Shown here piece by piece: positions 12,220 through 24,877 of a stretch of 64,000 nt of DNA. This DNA comes from Candidatus Kaiserbacteria bacterium (GTDB lineage Bacteria; Patescibacteriota; Minisyncoccia; Phycocordibacterales; UBA2100). How positions within the stretch are numbered: position 1 is the stretch's first letter; every line of letters starts with the position of its first letter. Under the pieces are notes generated by a model. The model was given only the letters and a program-made list of their open reading frames with translations. It was not told the origin of the DNA and ran no database searches. The stretch spans positions 10,044-74,043 of the forward strand of contig JAHFMV010000004.1 in the NCBI GenBank assembly GCA_023267655.1, written 5' to 3'. The position numbers were made by a program, and so were the translations under genes.

Positions 12220-15200
12220 TTAGCGACGCGAGAACCACGTTCCGGGCCACCGATACGTGAGGATGGGGATCATAACGAGCGTGAGAATCATTGAAAACGC
12301 AAGACCAAACATGATCGTGTAGGCAAGTGGACCCCAGAGCGCGGTTGCGCCCGCAAGCGGGAGCATGCCAATTACGGTGGTGATTGTCGTAAGGAAGATG
12401 GGGCGCAGGCGTGAGATCGCGGCTTCGATGATGACTTCGCGCGGAGAAAGATCGAGGCGCGTGTGTGCTATGCGGTGAATGGAGTCGGTGAGGATGATCG
12501 CGTGGTTGATGATGACACCGGCAAGCGCAATGATGCCAACGACCGATGAAAATGAGAGCGTACGCCCCGAAATAAAGAGCCCGCCGAAGACGCCGATAAG
12601 CGAGAGGATGACCATGAGGATCAGGTAGAGTGCGTGGCGGATCGAGTTGAATTGCATGACCATGATCGCGATCATGAGGACAAGTCCCGCGATGAATGCG
12701 AAGCCCATTTCTGCAAATGATTTATTCACATCCTCGGTCTCGCCGCCGATTTTCATCGTAATGCCTTGTGGCATTTGCAGTTCCTCTTTTCGCTTCTCGA
12801 TTTGAGTGGTGACTTCCACTGCGGTCGTTTTCCCGACGACTTGGCTTGAGACGGTCTCGATGCGTTTGCGATCGTCGTGATTGATGCTGCTCTTGCCGCG
12901 ATCAAGCGTTGTATCGAGTACCGAGCCGAGGAGGATCGGACCTTTCGGCGTCTGGACCGTGATCGCACGCAAGGCATCCGCGCTGACATTTGTCGTTTCC
13001 GACGGATCGTCGTAGACCGGATTCAAATCCATTTTGACTACAACATCAGTGTCGACGTCAGGATTATGGATCGTTGTTGCGGTCGCGCCGTGCACCGCGG
13101 TGCGAAGCGTCTGCGCGATCATCGCCGGTGAGAGACCAAAGCTCGCGGCTTTTGCGCGGTCGATGGTGAGTGTAAATTCAAGACCGTTGTCTTTCACGCT
13201 CGATTGGATATCAGAGACGCCATTGATAGACGCGAGCAGTCGCTCGGCGTTGACCGTAACCTTTTCAAGATCATCAAGGTTGTCTCCGGAGAAGGTAATG
13301 AGGACAGGCGCGCCCGATGGCGGACCGTTGTTCGGCTCTGACACGCGGATCGTGGCGCCCGGGATTGTGCCGACTTTTTGTCGCACTGCATCCACAACTT
13401 CGGACGATGTATGTGCGCGGTCATGTTTGTCCGTGAGGAGAATCGTGATGTTCGCGAGATTTCCGCCGGCGGTCGGTTGGTCTCCTGAGAGCGCGCTGGT
13501 ACCGCCGACTGTTGTCGCAAACGAATCAATATCAGGATTACCATAGAGCGCCTCTTCGACTTGCCGTGTCACTAGATCAGTATCGAGAAGCGTCGTGCCT
13601 TGCGGCTTTTCAATTGAAATCACCACATAGCCGATGTCTTCTTGCGGGAAGAACGTCGTTTTCAAAAGGCCGGTAATCGGAAGCGCAAGTGCGAGGAAAA
13701 AGCCGCCGATGATTGACCAGAGGAAAATATTTTGTGCGCGACGGTTGTCGAGCATGTATCCCAATGTTCCGCGATACCATTCTTGGAATTTGTGCGTGTA
13801 TTCCTCTTGCTTTTTCTCGAGGCGATTCGATTCTTTTTTAGTAAACGTGATCGCAATCAAAGGGACAAGGCCGAGCGCGACGAAAATCGACGCAAACAGG
13901 ACGAAAATAAGGGTGAAGGGAATCGATTTAATGAATTGTCCGACAATGCCGGAGATAAAGAACAACGGCGCAAAGACGGCGACCGTTGCCATCGTACCGG
14001 CGATAAGCGGCCACGCGTATTCCTTGAGCGCGGCTTCGGCTGCTTCTTCTTTCGTTGGAAAGAGACGCATACGGGTGTGGATCGCTTCGGTAACGACAAT
14101 GCCGCTATCCACCAAAATACCGATCGCGAGAATGAGCGCAAAAAGGGAAACGAAATTCAGCGTGTTGCCGCTCTCCAAAAGACCGATGAACGCAATGAGG
14201 AATGAGAGCGGAATAGAAACTGCGGCGACGAGTGACTCGCGCCACCCGATCGTGATAAACAGCGTGATCATGACGAGTGCCATGGTCTCGAGACCGACTT
14301 TCGTGAGATCGCTCAAGCTCGTCTTTACTTCCTTGCCCAAATCAAGCGAAAGGACGACGGAGCTGCCATTTAGTATTCCTTTTTTCAATTCTTCGAGGCG
14401 TGCTTTGACTGCGTCCGCTGTCGTCACGATATTTCCACCGGAACTCTTAAATACTGAAAGGGTGAGTGAGGATTCAGAAGGTTTTCCGCCCGATGATGCG
14501 CGGGAAATGCTGGTTGGGCGTTCAAGACCATCGACGACATCCGCGATATCGCGCACGTACACGATGGTGCCCGTCGGTGCGACGATCGCGACATCGCGGA
14601 CTTGGTCGGCCTCTGCAATGTCGCCCTCGAAATTCAGAGCGTATTCGATATTGTCGACCGTGATCGATCCGACCGGGAGTTTTGCATTCGATGCGGCGAT
14701 CGCGCCGACGATGTCAGTCAAACGCAGCCCGTATTGATTCAATTTTTCCTTTTGGACGACGACTTGGATTTCCTTTTTGCGCACACCGGAAACTTCGACA
14801 CGTGAGACGCCTTTTACATTCTGGAGATCATCCTGCAAGTCTTTGCCGAGTGAAGTCAGGATTGCCGGCGCATAATCGCCAGTCACTGAAATGATAAGAA
14901 TCGGCTGTTCTGCAAAATTGACTTCGCTTACGAAAGGACCATTCGCTTCAGCAGGCAAGTCTGATTTCGACGCCGCAACTGCGTCTTTCAATTTCTGGAT
15001 GGATTTATCGAGGTTTGCATTTGCATCAAATTGCACCGTCACCATTGAGAGCCCTTCGCGTGAGCTCGAAGTCAGCTTGTCGAGGTTTTCAAGGTTTGCG
15101 ACGCCGCTTTCAATCTTATCGGTAACGAGTTGCTCGACATCAGCAGCGGATGCGCCGGGGAAGACGGTCGTGACGATACCAATCGGGATTCGCACTGCCG

Positions 15201-15315
15201 GCGCGTTTTCTTTCGGAATGCTCAAAAGAGCATACGTCCCAGTAGCGATGAGCGCGACGATCAGCAACACCGTAAACTGGCGCTTGCGCAAAAAATAATT
15301 CCAAAGCCACAGCAT
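12220..15315 (-). CDS. RND efflux transporter permease (AcrB/HAE1 family)
   Basis: 1031 aa with 12 TM segments and two large periplasmic loops. AcrB-type conservation throughout. Confidence 0.9.
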   Translation of the reverse strand: MLWLWNYFLRKRQFTVLLIVALIATGTYALLSIPKENAPAVRIPIGIVTTVFPGASAADVEQLVTDKIESGVANLENLDKLTSSSREGLSMVTVQFDANANLDKSIQKLKDAVAASKSDLPAEANGPFVSEVNFAEQPILIISVTGDYAPAILTSLGKDLQDDLQNVKGVSRVEVSGVRKKEIQVVVQKEKLNQYGLRLTDIVGAIAASNAKLPVGSITVDNIEYALNFEGDIAEADQVRDVAIVAPTGTIVYVRDIADVVDGLERPTSISRASSGGKPSESSLTLSVFKSSGGNIVTTADAVKARLEELKKGILNGSSVVLSLDLGKEVKTSLSDLTKVGLETMALVMITLFITIGWRESLVAAVSIPLSFLIAFIGLLESGNTLNFVSLFALILAIGILVDSGIVVTEAIHTRMRLFPTKEEAAEAALKEYAWPLIAGTMATVAVFAPLFFISGIVGQFIKSIPFTLIFVLFASIFVALGLVPLIAITFTKKESNRLEKKQEEYTHKFQEWYRGTLGYMLDNRRAQNIFLWSIIGGFFLALALPITGLLKTTFFPQEDIGYVVISIEKPQGTTLLDTDLVTRQVEEALYGNPDIDSFATTVGGTSALSGDQPTAGGNLANITILLTDKHDRAHTSSEVVDAVRQKVGTIPGATIRVSEPNNGPPSGAPVLITFSGDNLDDLEKVTVNAERLLASINGVSDIQSSVKDNGLEFTLTIDRAKAASFGLSPAMIAQTLRTAVHGATATTIHNPDVDTDVVVKMDLNPVYDDPSETTNVSADALRAITVQTPKGPILLGSVLDTTLDRGKSSINHDDRKRIETVSSQVVGKTTAVEVTTQIEKRKEELQMPQGITMKIGGETEDVNKSFAEMGFAFIAGLVLMIAIMVMQFNSIRHALYLILMVILSLIGVFGGLFISGRTLSFSSVVGIIALAGVIINHAIILTDSIHRIAHTRLDLSPREVIIEAAISRLRPIFLTTITTVIGMLPLAGATALWGPLAYTIMFGLAFSMILTLVMIPILTYRWPGTWFSRR

Positions 15316-15320
15316 ATACG

Positions 15321-16847
15321 TTAGTCGGCGACCGTCACCTCGTCGCCTTCCTTCAGACCTCGGCTATCGGCTACGATTTCCGTGTCTGCGGTAAGGCCTT
15401 GCGTGACTTGTACAGAATCTCCCGAAAGTTTGCCGATGGTGATTTCCTTCGCGACAAGTTTGTTATCAAGAACTGTAAAGACGATTGTGCGTTTTGCTTC
15501 GATCTTCAGCGCGGCTATTGGGATGGAGAGCGGACCGCTCGTTGGTGCGGTTGCAACGCCTTTTCCGAGTTCGATGCGGACCGATTGACCGTTTGTCAAA
15601 ACTTTCGCAGCGTTTGCTGGGAGTCCGATGCGGACTTCGATGCGGCGAGTCACCGGGTCAAGCGCCGGTGCGATTTTGGTAACAGTGCCAGTTACGCCAC
15701 CCTCGAGCGTGATTTTTTGACCGACGGAAACACGCGATTTGTCTTCCTCGGTCACGTACGCAACGGCTTCCAGCGCACCATTGTTCGACACAACGGCAAC
15801 TTGCTGCGATGGGGTGAGGAAATCGCCGAGTTTGATCGTGAAATTATTGAGTGAGCCGGCGATTGGTGAGCGGATGATGGTTTTCTCGAGGTTCGCGACT
15901 GTCGCGTTGTAGGCGCCTTGTGCCTGCTTAAGAGACGCTGAAGATGCCGATGGGCCGCCACTTTCACCCGTATTATTTGCGGCGACTTGAAGACCACTTT
16001 GTGCGCTCGCGACAGAGGAGAGTGCGCTTGTTACCGCCGTACGCCCCGCAGTCGCATCAGCGAGGTACGTCGCAATATTGGAGGACGACACATCAGAGCT
16101 TGGAATGCCTTTGTTGAGAACGATGATCAGCGTATCGAGATAGCTTCGCAAATCGCGCAGCTCCGATTCGGTCTTTGCGAGTTCCGTCGCTAGGTCGCTC
16201 GAGCCCGTCAGCGAGTTCTGAATATTCGCGTGACGTTTGATAACCGCCGTCAACGCGCCGCGGTTCAATACTAATTGCATCTTGAGTTGGGATTCAGATG
16301 TCTGGACGTTAAAGACGGGTGTCTGCGATTCCGGATTTGAAAAGTTGACATCGATATCATCATGGACGGTGCTTCCGTAGGTTGCATACGTGCTCAAGAG
16401 CGTGTTCAGCGCTGATGTCTGTGCGCTATCAAGTGAGACCGTAGTGTTGGCATTTGCCGCTTTAGCAGCTTCGAGAACGCCCTCCGCCTGCAAGACTGCC
16501 GCGCGCTGGGAATCATTTTCGACTTCTGCGAGGATTTGTCCGGCGGATACAAAATCGCCGAGCGATGCGCGCACATGCGTGACACGTCCGCCGCTTTCTG
16601 CGGAAATTTTCGCTTCATTGACGGAGCGGATTTCTGCAACGATTGAGAGTGAGCCGTTGCCGCTCATCAGATCAGCCACACGCCCGACGATGACTTCGGG
16701 CTTTGCATCAGGCGTTGCTGTGGCGTCTTTTGCACCCACAAAATGGAAAATAAGCCCGCCGCCAATAAGGAGAACGACAAGTCCGGCGATTGAGTAGCGT
16801 TTGTGCGCGAGTATTAGCGCCTTAATTCGAGCCACGTATGTAGTCAT
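15321..16847 (-). CDS. RND efflux periplasmic adaptor (membrane fusion protein, HlyD/AcrA family)
   Basis: N-terminal TM anchor, long coiled-coil hairpin, then the beta-barrel/lipoyl-like C-terminal part. Sits immediately upstream of the RND gene. Confidence 0.85.
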   Translation of the reverse strand: MTTYVARIKALILAHKRYSIAGLVVLLIGGGLIFHFVGAKDATATPDAKPEVIVGRVADLMSGNGSLSIVAEIRSVNEAKISAESGGRVTHVRASLGDFVSAGQILAEVENDSQRAAVLQAEGVLEAAKAANANTTVSLDSAQTSALNTLLSTYATYGSTVHDDIDVNFSNPESQTPVFNVQTSESQLKMQLVLNRGALTAVIKRHANIQNSLTGSSDLATELAKTESELRDLRSYLDTLIIVLNKGIPSSDVSSSNIATYLADATAGRTAVTSALSSVASAQSGLQVAANNTGESGGPSASSASLKQAQGAYNATVANLEKTIIRSPIAGSLNNFTIKLGDFLTPSQQVAVVSNNGALEAVAYVTEEDKSRVSVGQKITLEGGVTGTVTKIAPALDPVTRRIEVRIGLPANAAKVLTNGQSVRIELGKGVATAPTSGPLSIPIAALKIEAKRTIVFTVLDNKLVAKEITIGKLSGDSVQVTQGLTADTEIVADSRGLKEGDEVTVAD

Positions 16848-20172: not shown

Positions 20173-20487
20173 ATGACTGAAAAGGGACCATGGGGCTCTC
20201 CTGACGGTGCACCGCGACGCGATGCACAAGAAAATATAATTCGGGGAATTCGGAGTGAATTACGTTCCTCCATGAAGACAATTGCCGATTACGAAGTTGA
20301 AGAAGACTTTACAAGTGCTCCCCGGGTGACTTTTAGAAAATCTGACGACGCGTCGTGGCCTGCTGTTGAGAAAAAAATTGAAGAGCTCGCGAAAGATGCG
20401 AGTGGGCTTGCAAAAAAACATAATTATGGCGATGTTCAGGTTCGCAAAGAGGCAGATGGAAAGTCCGTAATTGTTGAAATTGTGTAA
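20173..20487 (+). CDS. hypothetical protein (104 aa)
   Basis: ORF directly following and apparently coupled to the membrane protein gene. No recognisable motif. Confidence 0.4.
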   Translation: MTEKGPWGSPDGAPRRDAQENIIRGIRSELRSSMKTIADYEVEEDFTSAPRVTFRKSDDASWPAVEKKIEELAKDASGLAKKHNYGDVQVRKEADGKSVIVEIV

Positions 20488-20513: not shown

Positions 20514-23393
20514 ATGCGCTCGTACGACCATAAAAAAATAGAGCAGAAATGGCAGAAAGACTGGACGAAAAAGAAGCTCTACAAAACGGCCGACTCGGTG
20601 AAAGGGAAAGAGAATTTCCAACTTCTCGTCGAATTTCCATATCCCTCCGGTAATCTCCACGTCGGGCATTGGTATGCGTTTGCGGAGCCCGATATTTTAG
20701 CGCGCCATCTGCGCATGACGGGGAAGAACGTGATGTATCCGATTGGTTTCGATGCCTTCGGACTTCCCGCGGAAAATGCTGCGATAAAAAACGGACTGAA
20801 TCCAAAAAAATGGACGTTCGGCAATATCGCATACATGAAAAAGCAGATCGCATCGATGGGCACATCGTTTGATTGGTCGCGTGAAGTGATTACCGCCGAT
20901 CCCGCGTACTACCAATGGACGCAATGGCTCTTTTTGCAGTTTTTCAAGAAAGGCCTTGCATATAAAAAAGAGACTGCGGTGAATTGGTGTCCAAAAGACA
21001 AAACAGTGCTCGCGAACGAACAAGTGGTAAATGGCAAATGCGAACGCTGCGGCACGGAAGTTGAGCAACGCAACATGTTGCAGTGGAATTTGAAAATCAC
21101 GGACTATGCCGACCGTCTCGTCGATGATCTCGCGCCGCTCGATTGGCCGGAACAAATCAAAGAATCGCAACGCAATTGGATCGGCCGCAGCGAAGGCGCG
21201 GAAATTGATTTCTTTCTTGATTTTGGCGACGAGAAGGTAAATGCGCGCACCGACGCTAGTGGCAAACGTGCACATATCAAAATTTTTACCACGCGGGCAG
21301 ATACGCTTTTCGGCGCGACATATTTGGTACTTTCGCCCGAGCATCTATGGGTAAAATTGGCCCTCGGACACAGGACAGTTCTCAAAAATAACGAGGAAGT
21401 TCAAAAGTATGTCCGTGTAGCAGGGAAGAAAACAGAGTTAGAACGGCAGGAAAATAAAGAAAAGACCGGCGTGAAATTGGAGGGTGTTGAAGCAATCAAT
21501 CCGGCAACTGGTGAAAAGATTCCGTTATTCGTTGCTGACTACGTTCTCGCGCACTACGGTACCGGCGCAATCATGGCGGTCCCCGCACACGATGAACGTG
21601 ATTATGAATTTGCGACGAAATTTAAATTACCGATACGCGATGTTGTCGTCGAACAGACAACGCCACGAGTACCGGATGGTGTCTTCAGAAAAATCGGTAT
21701 AGCTATTGTCGAGAATGATAAAAATGAAGTGCTTTTACAATCAATTACTCACGAAGATCGCGTTGAATACGGACTACCTGGGGGAGGCATAGATGAAGGG
21801 GAGACAGAGGAAGAAGGAGTTATTCGCGAAGTTATCGAAGAAACAGGGTACACGAATTTTACTAATATCCGTCGCATTGGCACGGTTGAGTCAAATTTTT
21901 ATAATACCGTTCGAAAGATTAATCGACAGGCATTGGCCACATGCTATGCACTTCGTTTGAAAAATGAAACTAAGAAAGAATTGCAATTAACGGAACTTGA
22001 GAAAAAGGTCAAAATTGAAAATTTTTGGGTTAGTAAGCAAAAGGCCCTCGAACTCATTTCCGGATCACAATCTAACTCGGGTGAGGATCAGCCGTTATTC
22101 ATGCGATATCTTGGGGATAAAACTGATCCGTATACCGGTGCGGGCATACTGATACATTCTGCTGAATTTGATGGTCTAAATTCAGAAAAAGCGCGTCAAA
22201 AGATTACAGAAAAATTCGGCACGAAGAAGACGACGTACAAGATGCGCGATTGGGTTGTCTCGCGTCAGCGGTTCTGGGGCGTGCCGATTCCGATTATTCA
22301 TTGCCCGAAATGCGGTGATGTTGCGGTGCCGGATAAGGATTTACCCGTAAAGTTACCGGATTTGAAAGATTATCTGCCGACAGGAGACGGAAAGTCACCG
22401 CTCGCGAAAGTAAAATCATTCGTCAAGGTGAAATGTCCGCAGTGCAAAGGGAAAGCGGAACGCGAGATTGATACGTTTGATACCTTTGTCGACTCATCGT
22501 GGTATTTCCAAAGATATTCGGATCCGAAGAATACAAAGAAATTTGCGGATGCGAAAAAACTACAGAACTGGTTGCCGGTTGATTTGTATTCAGGCGGTGC
22601 CGAACATACGACGGTGCATCTTCTCTATAGCCGCTTCTGGCACAAGGCGATGTTTGATCTCGGGCTCGTAAAAGATGCAGAGCCATACACGCGTCGCATG
22701 AATCGCTCGCTTATCATGGGTCCTGACGGACAGAAAATGTCGAAATCGCGCGGCAACGTGATCGATCCGGATGAAGTCGTGCGCAATCTTGGTGCTGATA
22801 CGGTGCGTATGTATTTGGCCTTTATCGGCCCGTACAACGAAGTGGCAAGTTATCCATGGAATCCAAACGGGGTCGTTGGCGTGCGTCGATTTCTCGAGCG
22901 AGTCTGGCGCCTTCACGAACGACTCTCGGCTGTGCAGCATCCGCTTGTCGAGCGCGCGATTCATGTGTGTGCAAAGAAATTGACCGAAGATTTGCCGCAA
23001 ATGAAATTCAATACCGCCATCGCGGCGATGATGCTGTTTCTTAACGAAGCCGAAGCAAAGGGAATTACCAAGGGTCAATATCTCGTCCTTCTGCGTCTTC
23101 TTGCGCCGTTCGCGCCGCATATCACGGATGAGCTGTGGCACATCCTCGGCAACAAGAAGTCGGTCCATCTCGAAGCATGGCCAAAATATGATCCGAAGAA
23201 AGTTGTGTCGGAAGAAGCGACGATCGTGGTTCAAATCAATGGCAAGGTTCGCGCACAAGTCCAGGTAGCGTCAAATTCGAGCGAAGCGTTGGTACGCGCA
23301 GAAGCCGAAAAGACAGTTGAAAAATGGCTTGAAGGGAAGTCGGTACGTAAAGTCATCTTCGTACCGAACCGACTGATCAATTTCGTCGTTTAA
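20514..23393 (+). CDS. leuS: leucine--tRNA ligase with internal NUDIX hydrolase domain insertion
   Basis: HIGH motif as HVGHWYAF and KMSKS as KMSKSRGN. CP1 editing-domain conservation (AVPAHDERDYEFA). At 959 aa it is ~100-150 aa longer than typical bacterial LeuRS; the excess is a complete NUDIX fold. Confidence 0.95.
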   Translation: MRSYDHKKIEQKWQKDWTKKKLYKTADSVKGKENFQLLVEFPYPSGNLHVGHWYAFAEPDILARHLRMTGKNVMYPIGFDAFGLPAENAAIKNGLNPKKWTFGNIAYMKKQIASMGTSFDWSREVITADPAYYQWTQWLFLQFFKKGLAYKKETAVNWCPKDKTVLANEQVVNGKCERCGTEVEQRNMLQWNLKITDYADRLVDDLAPLDWPEQIKESQRNWIGRSEGAEIDFFLDFGDEKVNARTDASGKRAHIKIFTTRADTLFGATYLVLSPEHLWVKLALGHRTVLKNNEEVQKYVRVAGKKTELERQENKEKTGVKLEGVEAINPATGEKIPLFVADYVLAHYGTGAIMAVPAHDERDYEFATKFKLPIRDVVVEQTTPRVPDGVFRKIGIAIVENDKNEVLLQSITHEDRVEYGLPGGGIDEGETEEEGVIREVIEETGYTNFTNIRRIGTVESNFYNTVRKINRQALATCYALRLKNETKKELQLTELEKKVKIENFWVSKQKALELISGSQSNSGEDQPLFMRYLGDKTDPYTGAGILIHSAEFDGLNSEKARQKITEKFGTKKTTYKMRDWVVSRQRFWGVPIPIIHCPKCGDVAVPDKDLPVKLPDLKDYLPTGDGKSPLAKVKSFVKVKCPQCKGKAEREIDTFDTFVDSSWYFQRYSDPKNTKKFADAKKLQNWLPVDLYSGGAEHTTVHLLYSRFWHKAMFDLGLVKDAEPYTRRMNRSLIMGPDGQKMSKSRGNVIDPDEVVRNLGADTVRMYLAFIGPYNEVASYPWNPNGVVGVRRFLERVWRLHERLSAVQHPLVERAIHVCAKKLTEDLPQMKFNTAIAAMMLFLNEAEAKGITKGQYLVLLRLLAPFAPHITDELWHILGNKKSVHLEAWPKYDPKKVVSEEATIVVQINGKVRAQVQVASNSSEALVRAEAEKTVEKWLEGKSVRKVIFVPNRLINFVV
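21684..22064 (+). other. NUDIX hydrolase domain embedded in LeuRS (between the end of the CP1 editing domain and the leucyl-specific region)
   Basis: Perfect Nudix box G-GIDEG-E-TEEEGVI-RE-V-I-EE-T-G-Y (G x5 E x7 REUxEExGU), flanked by ~50 aa N-terminal and ~70 aa C-terminal fold elements. E. coli LeuRS has only ~30 aa at this position. Confidence 0.8.
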
Positions 23394-24877
23394 TACTTGG
23401 CGACGAGTCGTGGGCCGTCGGCGGTGTCTTCGATCACATACCCTGCGGATTCAATTTCTGTGCGAACCTGGTCGGCGACATCCCATTTCTTTTCTGCACG
23501 CGCTTCTTCACGCTTTGCAAGTAGGTCGCGCACATGTGCAGGAACGTCGGCAGAAGAAACTACGGCGCCAAGTTCCTTGCGATATAACTCACTCGCGCGA
23601 TCATCAGGCTGTGCGAGCTGCAATCCAAATACTTTATCTGCCGCGAGAATGCCTGCGCGAATGTCCGCGTGCGGGACATTTTTGTCATTGATCATTTCCC
23701 ACACAACGGCGAGTGCGCCCGGCGTATCAAAATCATCATTTATGCGCTCTTGGAAGCGAGTGAGATACGAAATCGGTTTAGAGCCGTCGTGCGGCAGTTC
23801 ATCAACAAGTTTCCGCAATTTCAAAAACGCCGTTTGCGCCGCTTGCAGTGCATCCCACGTAAAGTTCGATGGCTGACGATAATGCGCACCGAGCAGGAGA
23901 TAGCGAAACGCGAGCGGGTGGAATCCTTTCTCAATAATATCCGAAAGATACACAGTATTGCCTTCGGATTTTGAAATTTTTGAGCTCTCGATCTGCAAGT
24001 GCGCGCGATGAAGCCAATAGCGTGAGAACGGTTTCTTGCCCGTCGCGCTCTCCGACTGCGCGATTTCGTTGTTGTGATGCACAGGGATGTGTTCGATACC
24101 GCCGGTATGGATATCGATCTGTTCTCCCAAAATCGCGCGGCTCATCGCGGAGCATTCGATGTGCCACCCGGGGAAGCCCAGACCCCACGGGCTCTCCCAC
24201 CCCAACTTCTTGTCCAATTTCCACAACAAAAAATCCGTCGGATTGCGCTTTTCGATGGTTGCCTCGACACGTGCGCCTTCTTTCAAGCCCTCAAGATTGA
24301 TGTTGCCCAATTTGCCGTAGGCGGGAAATCGCGAGGTATCAAAATACACGCCATCGGTGCCACGATACGCATATCCTTTCTCTTCGAGCGTCTGTATCAT
24401 CGCGATTTGTGCAGGAATATAATCTGACGCGCGCGGAAAATGCGTCCCATCAGTTTTAATATTCAGTGTCGCAAGATCGGCGAGAAACAGCTCGGTGTAT
24501 TTTTCCGCAAGCGCGCGCATGTTCTCGAGCGTCAGTTTCATTTTCTCGCGCTTGAGGCCTTTGGTCATTTTGTCTTCGCCGTCGTCGCCGTCGGAGACAA
24601 GATGCCCGACGTCGGTGATGTTGATGACTTGTTTGACCGCATAGCCGTTCATCTCAAACGTGCGTCGCACGATGTCGGTAAAGACAAACATCGACAGGTT
24701 ACCGATGTGCTGCACGCCGTACACCGTCGGGCCGCAGTTGTACATCTTGACGTGACCCGGCTTCAGAGGCTCGAAGACCTCGGCCGATTGCGTGAGAGTG
24801 TTGTAGAGATGAAGGGGCGGATTTGTATCCACCGTCTTTCCACCGAGCAGCTTGTCCAACCACTTCATGTGAAGCAT
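23390..24877 (-). CDS. cysS: cysteine--tRNA ligase
   Basis: KISKSEGN (KMSKS) and CysRS-family conservation including the Zn-binding Cys. 495 aa. Confidence 0.95.
   Translation of the reverse strand: MLHMKWLDKLLGGKTVDTNPPLHLYNTLTQSAEVFEPLKPGHVKMYNCGPTVYGVQHIGNLSMFVFTDIVRRTFEMNGYAVKQVINITDVGHLVSDGDDGEDKMTKGLKREKMKLTLENMRALAEKYTELFLADLATLNIKTDGTHFPRASDYIPAQIAMIQTLEEKGYAYRGTDGVYFDTSRFPAYGKLGNINLEGLKEGARVEATIEKRNPTDFLLWKLDKKLGWESPWGLGFPGWHIECSAMSRAILGEQIDIHTGGIEHIPVHHNNEIAQSESATGKKPFSRYWLHRAHLQIESSKISKSEGNTVYLSDIIEKGFHPLAFRYLLLGAHYRQPSNFTWDALQAAQTAFLKLRKLVDELPHDGSKPISYLTRFQERINDDFDTPGALAVVWEMINDKNVPHADIRAGILAADKVFGLQLAQPDDRASELYRKELGAVVSSADVPAHVRDLLAKREEARAEKKWDVADQVRTEIESAGYVIEDTADGPRLVAKY

Follow-up and report, generated by a model that had tools for sequence, protein, structure and literature searches.

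The stretch of DNA considered here comprises 64,000 nucleotides of a Candidatus Kaiserbacteria genome (contig JAHFMV010000004.1, positions 10,044 to 74,043 of the forward strand) and is referred to below as the window. It carries leuS, a gene on the forward strand that encodes a leucyl-tRNA synthetase (LeuRS) of 959 residues. Nested within the CP1 editing domain of this protein is a complete NUDIX domain. The same arrangement is common among the closest LeuRS of the candidate phyla radiation (CPR), where the nested domain looks like a mobile cassette that the synthetase can do without. The main features of the gene are as follows, with positions counted along the window and residues along the LeuRS product.

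20514-23393, forward strand: leuS, LeuRS with a nested NUDIX domain, 959 residues, identified by its open reading frame and by profile and structure matches
20658-20669, forward strand: HIGH signature HVGH, residues 49-52, class I synthetic site
21213-21284, forward strand: CP1 insertion site 1, empty here, a 24-residue loop FLDFGDEKVNARTDASGKRAHIKI, residues 234-257
21288-21305, forward strand: Thr-rich editing motif TTRADT, residues 259-264
21576-21602, forward strand: editing-site motif AVPAHDERD, residues 355-363, which holds the conserved editing Asp
21624-21647, forward strand: CP1 strand KLPIRDVV, residues 371-378, the ascending hairpin arm that hosts insertion site 2
21660-22133, forward strand: inserted cassette, residues 383-540, about 152 extra residues made up of the NUDIX domain and short linkers
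21699-22046, forward strand: Pfam NUDIX domain PF00293, residues 396-511
21783-21851, forward strand: Nudix box GGIDEGETEEEGVIREVIEETGY, residues 424-446, G424-X5-E430-X7-R438-E439-V-X-E442-E443-X-G445-Y446
21900-21902, forward strand: Tyr463 in the X-loop, 17 residues past the Nudix box, a candidate base-stacking or specificity residue
22131-22280, forward strand: CP1 resumes (YTGAGILIHSAEFDG...) and runs through the C-terminal linker TTYKMRDWVVSRQRFWG to the catalytic core
22734-22748, forward strand: KMSKS loop, residues 741-745, invariant across relatives

Evidence that leuS encodes a LeuRS is provided by both profiles and structures. The whole protein scores 953.8 bits against the bacterial LeuRS equivalog TIGR00396 (leuS_bact), whose cut-off is 548.4, and Pfam finds the tRNA-synt_1 domain, the LeuRS editing domain (PF13603, 183.7 bits) and an anticodon-binding domain. 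LeuRS from T. thermophilus (1h3n) is matched by HMMER with an E-value of 1.7e-214. The AlphaFold2 (AF2) model of the full-length protein, with a mean predicted local distance difference test score (pLDDT) of 82.5 and a predicted TM-score (pTM) of 0.66, resembles LeuRS structures such as 2bte (Foldseek E 6e-69) and 5on3.

The motifs of the host are well preserved. H49, G51 and H52 of the HIGH signature are invariant in a 41-sequence alignment, and V50 is nearly so. T259, T260, R261, D263 and T264 of the Thr-rich motif are invariant in relatives with and without inserts. The second editing motif aligns with AVPAHDQRD of T. thermophilus, and its residues A358, H359, D360, R362 and D363 are likewise invariant in relatives. 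Because HIGH, KMSKS, TTRxDT and AVPAHDxRD are kept regardless of inserts, the host enzyme looks fully functional, and the gene looks like the organism's housekeeping LeuRS with its synthetic and editing sites intact. From these motifs and from the syntenic leuS locus of relatives, we infer that the protein is active in both leucylation and editing.

The leucine-specific domain is absent from the window LeuRS. Query residue 736 aligns to residue 579 of the T. thermophilus chain and query residue 741 to residue 637, so residues ~580-636 of that chain have no counterpart (window 22720-22760, residues ~736-741). The LeuRS core is correspondingly short, at about 755 residues.

The limits of the insert can be drawn by comparison with LeuRS that lack it. 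In the HMMER alignment, query residues 387-540 stand in place of residues 370-377 of 1h3n, and the segment from anchor to anchor measures 181 residues in the window protein against 27-29 in plain relatives. The insert breaks the Pfam profile of the LeuRS editing domain at position 144 of 185, after which CP1 continues with YTGAGILIHSAEFDG... up to the TTYKMRDW linker. Since short strands (residues 378-381 and 545-546, assigned by DSSP in the full-length AF2 model) flank the insert, the NUDIX domain would be placed at the tip of a beta-hairpin.

The inserted residues form a domain of their own. The NUDIX family PF00293, with a cut-off of 21.1 bits, is found in the whole protein with an E-value of 1e-13 (51.9 bits) and in the excised segment with an E-value of 7e-15 (up to 55.7 bits). 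The Nudix box agrees with the consensus GX5EX7REUXEEXGU at all positions and sits on a helix predicted at residues 432-444 of the AF2 model. Confidence is high across the insert in the full-length model, with 10-residue block means of 87-94, and the insert modelled alone with 31 diverse sequences reaches a pLDDT of 91.5 and a pTM of 0.86. When the insert was compared with the PDB using Foldseek, 593 chains were matched at E <= 0.001; those listed are NUDIX enzymes throughout, led by 2azw, 5c7q, 3grn, 3i7u (an Ap4A hydrolase) and 9cxx (a diadenosine polyphosphatase). The insert is thus confidently modelled as a discrete, complete NUDIX fold with a perfect box, and its sequence suggests that it is a working catalyst.

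A preliminary description of this DNA, made from the letters alone, had placed a leuS reading frame of 959 residues at 20514-23393 on the forward strand, and the gene lies exactly there. It had also claimed that the LeuRS contains a complete NUDIX domain whose Nudix box is of the textbook kind, and Pfam, the model and Foldseek agree on this point. The insertion that it put at about 21684-22064 is real, but its length is ~152 residues (21660-22133) rather than ~125. The description had located the insert after CP1; it lies inside CP1, which is interrupted and then resumes. An alignment to bacterial LeuRS, proposed there as the means of delimiting the insertion, gave the boundaries reported above and assigned the extra residues to a NUDIX fold.

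The substrate class of the nested NUDIX can be approached through its relatives. A profile of the inserts run against solved structures finds 2azw (1.4e-15) and 3i7u (2.2e-12) first, then 3fk9, 3smd, 1f3y (1e-10) and CT771 (8e-10). Three of these top six (3i7u, 1f3y and CT771) are Ap4A hydrolases, while the best match is a MutT/nudix protein of uncharacterised function, and NDP-sugar hydrolase, ADP-ribose pyrophosphatase, MutT and DIPP are not far behind. Further Foldseek matches include 3i7u (target-normalised TM-score 0.79), the diadenosine polyphosphatase Rv2985, the Ap6A hydrolase Ndx1 and RppH-Ap4A.

None of the curated NUDIX equivalogs (MutT, RppH, YtkD, NudC, NudE and others) is reached by the insert, with scores of 17-35 bits against cut-offs of 80-475. 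For instance, the two models for the MutT 8-oxo-dGTPase give 32.6-34.5 bits against 97.9 (TIGR00586) and 24.5-28.1 bits against 148 (NF008044). With cut-offs of 116-118, the two best RppH sub-models (NF001938 and NF001936) reach 24.4-29.8 bits; the remaining RppH sub-models score lower. The YtkD model TIGR02705 gives 27.5-31.2 bits against 154.4.

More specific information can be drawn from a single residue and from charge. Activity on ApnA, that is, diadenosine polyphosphates, goes with a Tyr about 17 residues past the Nudix box, in the X-loop (Dunn et al. 1999, reviewed in PMC5389931). Tyr463 of the window protein occupies this position, and an ApnA-type or nucleoside triphosphate (NTP)-type substrate is therefore plausible. 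Phe or Tyr is found at the position in 112 of 114 inserts (71 Phe and 41 Tyr), which makes Tyr the minority choice. The inserts are also net acidic in 97% of 118 cases, with a mean charge of -5.2; the window domain has a charge of -4. Because catalytic residues are kept amid rapid divergence, because the net charge is negative and because small enzymes of the Ap4A and MutT type are prominent among the nearest solved relatives with a named function, a small-molecule pyrophosphohydrolase is favoured, and a small-molecule substrate appears more likely than RNA.

The occurrence of the insert among other LeuRS was surveyed in the 120 best full-length matches to the window protein (cluster representatives), which were aligned with MAFFT to measure the size of their inserts. 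The identical protein is present in NCBI (P0034), and the next relatives are labelled Candidatus Kaiserbacteria, Parcubacteria, Paceibacterota and Minisyncoccota. Across the 120 proteins the core is constant at 752-778 residues, and CP1 has two discrete insertion sites. Site 1 lies between GAEIDF and the Thr-rich motif, and site 2 between KFxLPI and LINSxEFDG.

A NUDIX domain occupies site 2 in 97 of these 120 proteins and an alpha/beta serine hydrolase of about 165 residues occupies site 1 in 79. The two occur together in 66/120. NUDIX alone, the state of the window protein, is seen in 31/120, hydrolase alone in 13/120 and a plain LeuRS with no insert in 9/120; the one protein left (1/120) has an unrelated 83-residue filler. 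The active-site motifs are largely retained, the strict Nudix box in 88 of the 97 site-2 inserts and GxSxG in 77 of the 79 hydrolases. Most of the closest CPR LeuRS have a site-2 NUDIX, and the window protein is not a one-off. The filler belongs to P0074 (864 residues), where the segment RVASAELGRHPGLKYVIKPNSEEDF...WKGHWRGY, unrelated to NUDIX, sits at site 2.

When 1.84 billion representatives were searched exhaustively with the insert, phmmer returned 1166 matches at E <= 0.001. From these, 151 proteins were inspected (the 150 best matches and one cluster member), and 31 of them are LeuRS or LeuRS fragments. The number of NUDIX domains in these ranges from one to three, placed at site 1, at site 2 or at a third site, and some of the proteins also have a Ser_hydrolase or Ham1p_like domain. 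Extreme rarity had been suggested by a word-index search of the insert alone, which found one LeuRS fragment; the full-length and exhaustive searches overturned it. As the word-index search missed even the identical protein, the apparent rarity was an artefact of sensitivity.

In species-representative genomes, LeuRS with a site-2 NUDIX was found at 34 of the 80 best loci. Four of the genes (L017, L020, L022 and L024) have cores that resemble Bacillus LeuRS (61-63% identity) more than the window protein (43-46%). With such Bacillus-like cores, the same hairpin hosts NUDIX in another phylum. Transfer of a whole CP1 into Bacillota-type hosts was considered and rejected, since L017, L020 and L024, when checked by segment, are uniformly Bacillota-like. 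The four genes come from gut metagenome-assembled genomes labelled Bacilli, Bacillota or Muribaculaceae. The labels Muribaculaceae, Gammaproteobacteria and Bdellovibrionales look inconsistent with the type of LeuRS, and such records may be mis-binned or mislabelled.

Insertion is limited neither to these two sites nor to these two folds. A third site is found in the Zn-knuckle region, after RQRYWGxPIP..HC. In the longer LeuRS of species-representative genomes, Pfam finds Ser_hydrolase at the third site, ASCH at site 1 or 3, Ham1p_like at site 1, and tandem NUDIX. For instance, the third site holds Ser_hydrolase in L004:1524-5021 and L009:2990-6556 according to Pfam, and apparently in L032:3017-6466 when judged by eye, while in L008:535-3711 it holds an ASCH domain. 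Site 1 of more distant LeuRS is occupied by Ham1, ASCH or NUDIX. A Ham1/ITPase-like domain at site 1 occurs together with a site-2 NUDIX in L070:2300-5902 and P0164, where two nucleotide house-cleaning folds share one synthetase.

Relatives of this NUDIX are also found in other hosts. One is nested in a prolyl-tRNA synthetase (ProRS), between the anticodon-binding and C-terminal domains. A double NUDIX is fused to GrpE, another NUDIX lies within a GNAT-NUDIX-GNAT-M17 aminopeptidase, and four tandem copies also occur; the proteins showing the ProRS, GrpE, M17 and tandem architectures are P0299, P0245, P0200 and P0252. Finally, in P0263 a fragment of a class I synthetase bears a fused Ham1-NUDIX unit at its N-terminus.

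The history of the cassette can be followed at a single locus. In the window the gene order is a DUF5671 protein, leuS, convergent cysS, corA and an S41 peptidase. The same order surrounds a plain LeuRS (P0041, in L081) and a hydrolase-only LeuRS (P0073, in L082). Given this shared synteny, the three genes are orthologues at one locus in three insert states. A free-standing NUDIX gene was not found beside leuS in the two relatives whose LeuRS lacks the NUDIX, nor was a second NUDIX found elsewhere in the 64-kb window.

Close relatives can also differ in the insert. The closest core, that of P0035, is 81% identical to that of the window protein, yet the two NUDIX domains are only 41% identical. 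Two other close cores, those of P0038 and P0040 (78-79% identical), have no NUDIX. Over the same pairs of proteins, pairwise identity averages 72.0% between cores, against 37.8% between NUDIX domains and 44.7% between alpha/beta hydrolases; the inserts diverge at roughly twice the rate of the core. Judged from the syntenic orthologues and close cores that differ in insert state, the NUDIX insert appears to be mobile and dispensable for LeuRS function.

The window insert falls into a minority group, 'type A', with those of P0036, P0037 and P0077. Against a profile built from the majority type it reaches 69-80 bits, which is roughly the level of unrelated NUDIX proteins that stand alone. The GC content at third codon positions (GC3) is 0.348 in the insert, 0.541 in the rest of leuS and 0.52-0.62 in neighbouring genes. 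Across 34 other loci the difference between insert and host averages -0.055 (standard deviation 0.061), and the window, at -0.19, is an outlier. This outlying GC3 suggests that the window cassette was captured or swapped fairly recently. As a universal property of the inserts, a GC3 dip is only partly true, given that mean and its spread.

The junctions of the insert read ...RDVV|VEQTTPR... and ...DKTDP|YTGAG.... Repeats flanking the insert were looked for, and only short ones at chance level were found. An intein, self-splicing element or mobile element was rejected as an origin, with neither a Hint or intein Pfam match nor an intein junction signature in the protein.

In the neighbourhood, leuS and the convergent cysS (reverse strand, 23390-24877) overlap by 4 nucleotides at their 3' ends (23390-23393), which leaves no room for an intergenic terminator between the two synthetase genes. 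The arrangement leuS-cysS-corA-S41 is also kept in L081 and L082. Upstream of leuS, after a gap of 26 nucleotides, lies an open reading frame of 104 residues (20173-20487) with no Pfam match; in L082 no gene is called at the equivalent position. Elsewhere in the window, on the reverse strand at 12220-16847, an AcrB-family RND transporter (1030 residues) and an HlyD-type membrane-fusion protein occur in an otherwise CPR-like, streamlined context.

The explanation that we prefer, while giving it somewhat less than an even chance, is that the NUDIX acts autonomously as a house-cleaning enzyme and sits in a permissive loop of a protein that is essential and constitutively expressed, in organisms with streamlined genomes. 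A self-contained NUDIX pyrophosphohydrolase would have been spliced into the tip of the CP1 beta-hairpin, and the two enzymes would most likely act independently on one polypeptide. LeuRS would charge and proofread tRNA-Leu as usual. The acidic NUDIX would most probably hydrolyse a small nucleotide, either a (di)nucleoside polyphosphate or a non-canonical NTP, as a form of house-cleaning. LeuRS would be the carrier, with a minimum of two permissive loops in CP1 and a third one in the Zn-knuckle region. In CPR and small-genome Bacillota, cassettes of NUDIX, alpha/beta Ser-hydrolase, Ham1/ITPase and ASCH type would be gained, lost and swapped in these loops, and by nesting in LeuRS they would inherit its constitutive expression.

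A mechanism specific to LeuRS is disfavoured because the cassette is dispensable in syntenic orthologues, because NUDIX is interchangeable with Ham1, ASCH and Ser-hydrolase modules, and because it occurs at three LeuRS sites. Fusions of related NUDIX domains to ProRS, GrpE, the GNAT-M17 aminopeptidase and, at its N-terminus, another class I synthetase also speak against it.

Several observations weigh against an independent passenger. LeuRS is by far the commonest host of this type of NUDIX (31 of the 151 best representatives), and the persistence of the domain in 97 of 120 relatives and in several phyla could reflect a functional link to LeuRS and not hitch-hiking. The top PDB match, 2azw, has no stated function, and overall similarity is an unreliable guide to NUDIX specificity. 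Constitutive expression in streamlined genomes, to which the explanation appeals, is itself something that we infer.

The functional link could take the form of clearance, a coupling that the preliminary description had already proposed. If the NUDIX were an ApnA (Ap4A/Ap3A) or alarmone hydrolase, it would destroy the dinucleoside polyphosphates made by LeuRS when ATP or ADP attacks the enzyme-bound leucyl-adenylate, and the local level of Ap4A or alarmone would be tied to LeuRS activity. Synthesis of Ap4A by aminoacyl-tRNA synthetases is established biochemistry, Ap4A hydrolases stand out among the best function-named structural profile matches, and Tyr463 stands at the position where Tyr correlates with ApnA activity. 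The acidic domain fits a small-molecule substrate, and related NUDIX domains are found in ProRS and on the N-terminus of another class I synthetase. Yet the cassette is missing from orthologous LeuRS at the same syntenic locus, the loops also take in Ham1, ASCH and Ser-hydrolase domains, none of which is connected with Ap4A, related NUDIX domains sit on GrpE and on an M17 peptidase, and the X-loop residue is more often Phe than Tyr. LeuRS is also, to our knowledge, not among the strong producers of Ap4A. Such clearance deserves real weight, but we hold it to be unlikely. A broader proposal, in which CP1 of CPR and small-genome Bacillota LeuRS is a modular quality-control hub and its NUDIX, Ham1, Ser-hydrolase and ASCH cassettes work together with the synthetase instead of being passengers, is also improbable in our view. 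Were it true, the modules might, for instance, destroy Ap4A or non-canonical adenylates made at the synthetic site, sanitise the local ATP pool, or add a second step of deacylation or clearance, and domain nesting would provide a new layer of synthetase proofreading or alarmone control. Action on RNA has much less in its favour. A NUDIX acting on the tRNA or RNA held by LeuRS, whether as an RppH-like 5'-pyrophosphohydrolase, in NAD or Np4A decapping, or in tRNA end repair, would be well placed in a domain that handles the tRNA acceptor end; there is weak, sub-threshold likeness to the RppH and YtkD models, RppH structures are among the fold matches, and ASCH, often regarded as RNA-binding, occupies the same loops in some relatives. 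But the RppH and YtkD scores fall far below their cut-offs of at least 116 and of 154.4 bits, the net negative charge of nearly all inserts is unfavourable to RNA binding, and the NUDIX is dispensable in orthologues. An RNA substrate is accordingly given little credence.

The domain might also have no catalytic role, serving as a nucleotide sensor or as a structural spacer that modulates the movement of CP1 and hence editing or aminoacylation. It is inserted in a mobile domain, a strict Nudix-box position is lost in 9 of the 97 homologous inserts, and non-enzymatic NUDIX proteins exist (PMC5389931). The box of the window protein is perfect, however, and 88 of the 97 homologues keep all catalytic positions at a mean identity of ~38% elsewhere, a pattern expected under selection on catalysis; a purely structural or sensory role is quite improbable. 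Self-defence, in which the NUDIX and Ser-hydrolase, by analogy with GNAT in isoleucyl-tRNA synthetase (IleRS), would detoxify antibiotics that mimic aminoacyl-adenylates and are aimed at the synthetase, would be consistent with a variable, fast-evolving and laterally exchanged pattern like that of conflict-driven genes. NCBIfam holds an exception model for IleRS with GNAT (NF040702), and LeuRS is the target of agrocin 84 according to the title of PDB entry 3zgz. Self-defence is pure analogy all the same: NUDIX enzymes cleave pyrophosphate bonds, which adenylate mimics generally lack, no immunity or toxin genes lie near leuS in the window, and Ham1 in the same loops and the NUDIX-GrpE fusion are left unexplained. 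It would be surprising if it proved correct. As for an artefact, whether of chimeric assembly or of a frameshift in an adjacent gene, the drop in GC3 within leuS could be read in this way. Against it, a single unbroken frame runs from LeuRS sequence through the insert and back into LeuRS sequence, NCBI has the identical protein, and the architecture recurs in about 100 independent clusters from many samples and in 34 species-representative genomes; an artefact can be dismissed for practical purposes. For now, the evidence leans to a NUDIX that is a passenger of LeuRS rather than part of a new proofreading mechanism.

The preliminary description had put the architecture forward as probably undescribed. 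The architecture is not unique, as a database search for LeuRS with NUDIX gave 97 of the 120 closest relatives, listed under generic names. The claim of novelty has fared better: no description of LeuRS with NUDIX was found in the open-access full text of PMC and bioRxiv, where absence is not proof, and none was found there of hydrolase cassettes in CPR LeuRS. The term 'tRNA synthetase' does not occur in a survey of the entire Nudix clan from 2017, and the LeuRS inserts go unmentioned in a 2026 review of the phylum. Among the 25 NCBIfam families listed for the window protein there is no curated LeuRS+NUDIX model. The sequences have been public for years under names such as 'class I tRNA ligase family protein', 'NUDIX domain-containing protein', 'alpha/beta fold hydrolase' and 'hypothetical protein'. 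What appears to be undescribed is the nested, modular arrangement; its components are known.

The architecture bears on several questions. Catalytic or signalling additions to synthetases are usually seen as a eukaryotic theme; here, active-looking enzymes are nested in a bacterial editing domain across hundreds of uncultivated lineages. The inserts form a natural map of LeuRS and CP1 loops that tolerate insertions of 150-200 residues, which can be useful in engineering, in the study of CP1 dynamics and in drug targeting of the editing site. In minimal-genome symbionts they also make it practicable to ask whether translation is physically linked to nucleotide house-cleaning or to the turnover of Ap4A. 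Finally, cassette-like gain, loss and swapping of domains within a universally conserved gene bears on its use as a phylogenetic marker and on annotation.

Compared with canonical bacterial LeuRS (T. thermophilus 1H3N and 2BYT, E. coli 4AQ7 and 4ARC), the window enzyme has the same HIGH and KMSKS signatures, a CP1 with the Thr-rich and Asp motifs, Zn knuckles, an anticodon-binding domain and a C-terminal domain. It differs in its nested NUDIX of ~152 residues and in the lack of a leucine-specific domain. The NUDIX in turn shares its fold, complete box and X-loop aromatic residue with stand-alone MutT/Ap4A-type enzymes (E. faecalis 2AZW, A. aeolicus 3I7U, lupin 1F3Y and Chlamydia CT771), with profile E-values of 1e-15 to 8e-10 and target-normalised TM-scores of up to 0.79. 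Unlike them, it is tied by both termini into a LeuRS hairpin, and identity is at most 26% across the fold matches.

Other enzymes with added domains provide further points of comparison. IleRS with GNAT (NCBIfam NF040702, 'ileS_w_GNAT') is also a bacterial class Ia synthetase with an extra catalytic domain, curated as an exception architecture. At the level of the NCBIfam model listing, it differs from the window LeuRS in host synthetase, inserted fold and chemistry. Eukaryotic aminoacyl-tRNA synthetases have gained GST, WHEP, EMAPII and UNE domains, and bacterial ProRS has an INS editing domain inserted in its catalytic core. These are terminal appendages or serve tRNA editing, whereas the LeuRS case involves a generic nucleotide hydrolase inside an editing domain. 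Unlike these modules, the hydrolase nested in LeuRS varies between close orthologues. Lineage-specific insertions such as BEAN and HABAS of the RNA polymerase beta and beta' subunits are, as far as is known, non-catalytic structural folds, while the LeuRS cassettes are enzymes with conserved active-site motifs. According to PMC11515920, the polymerase insertions are likewise polyphyletic and found at recurrent permissive sites of an essential enzyme.

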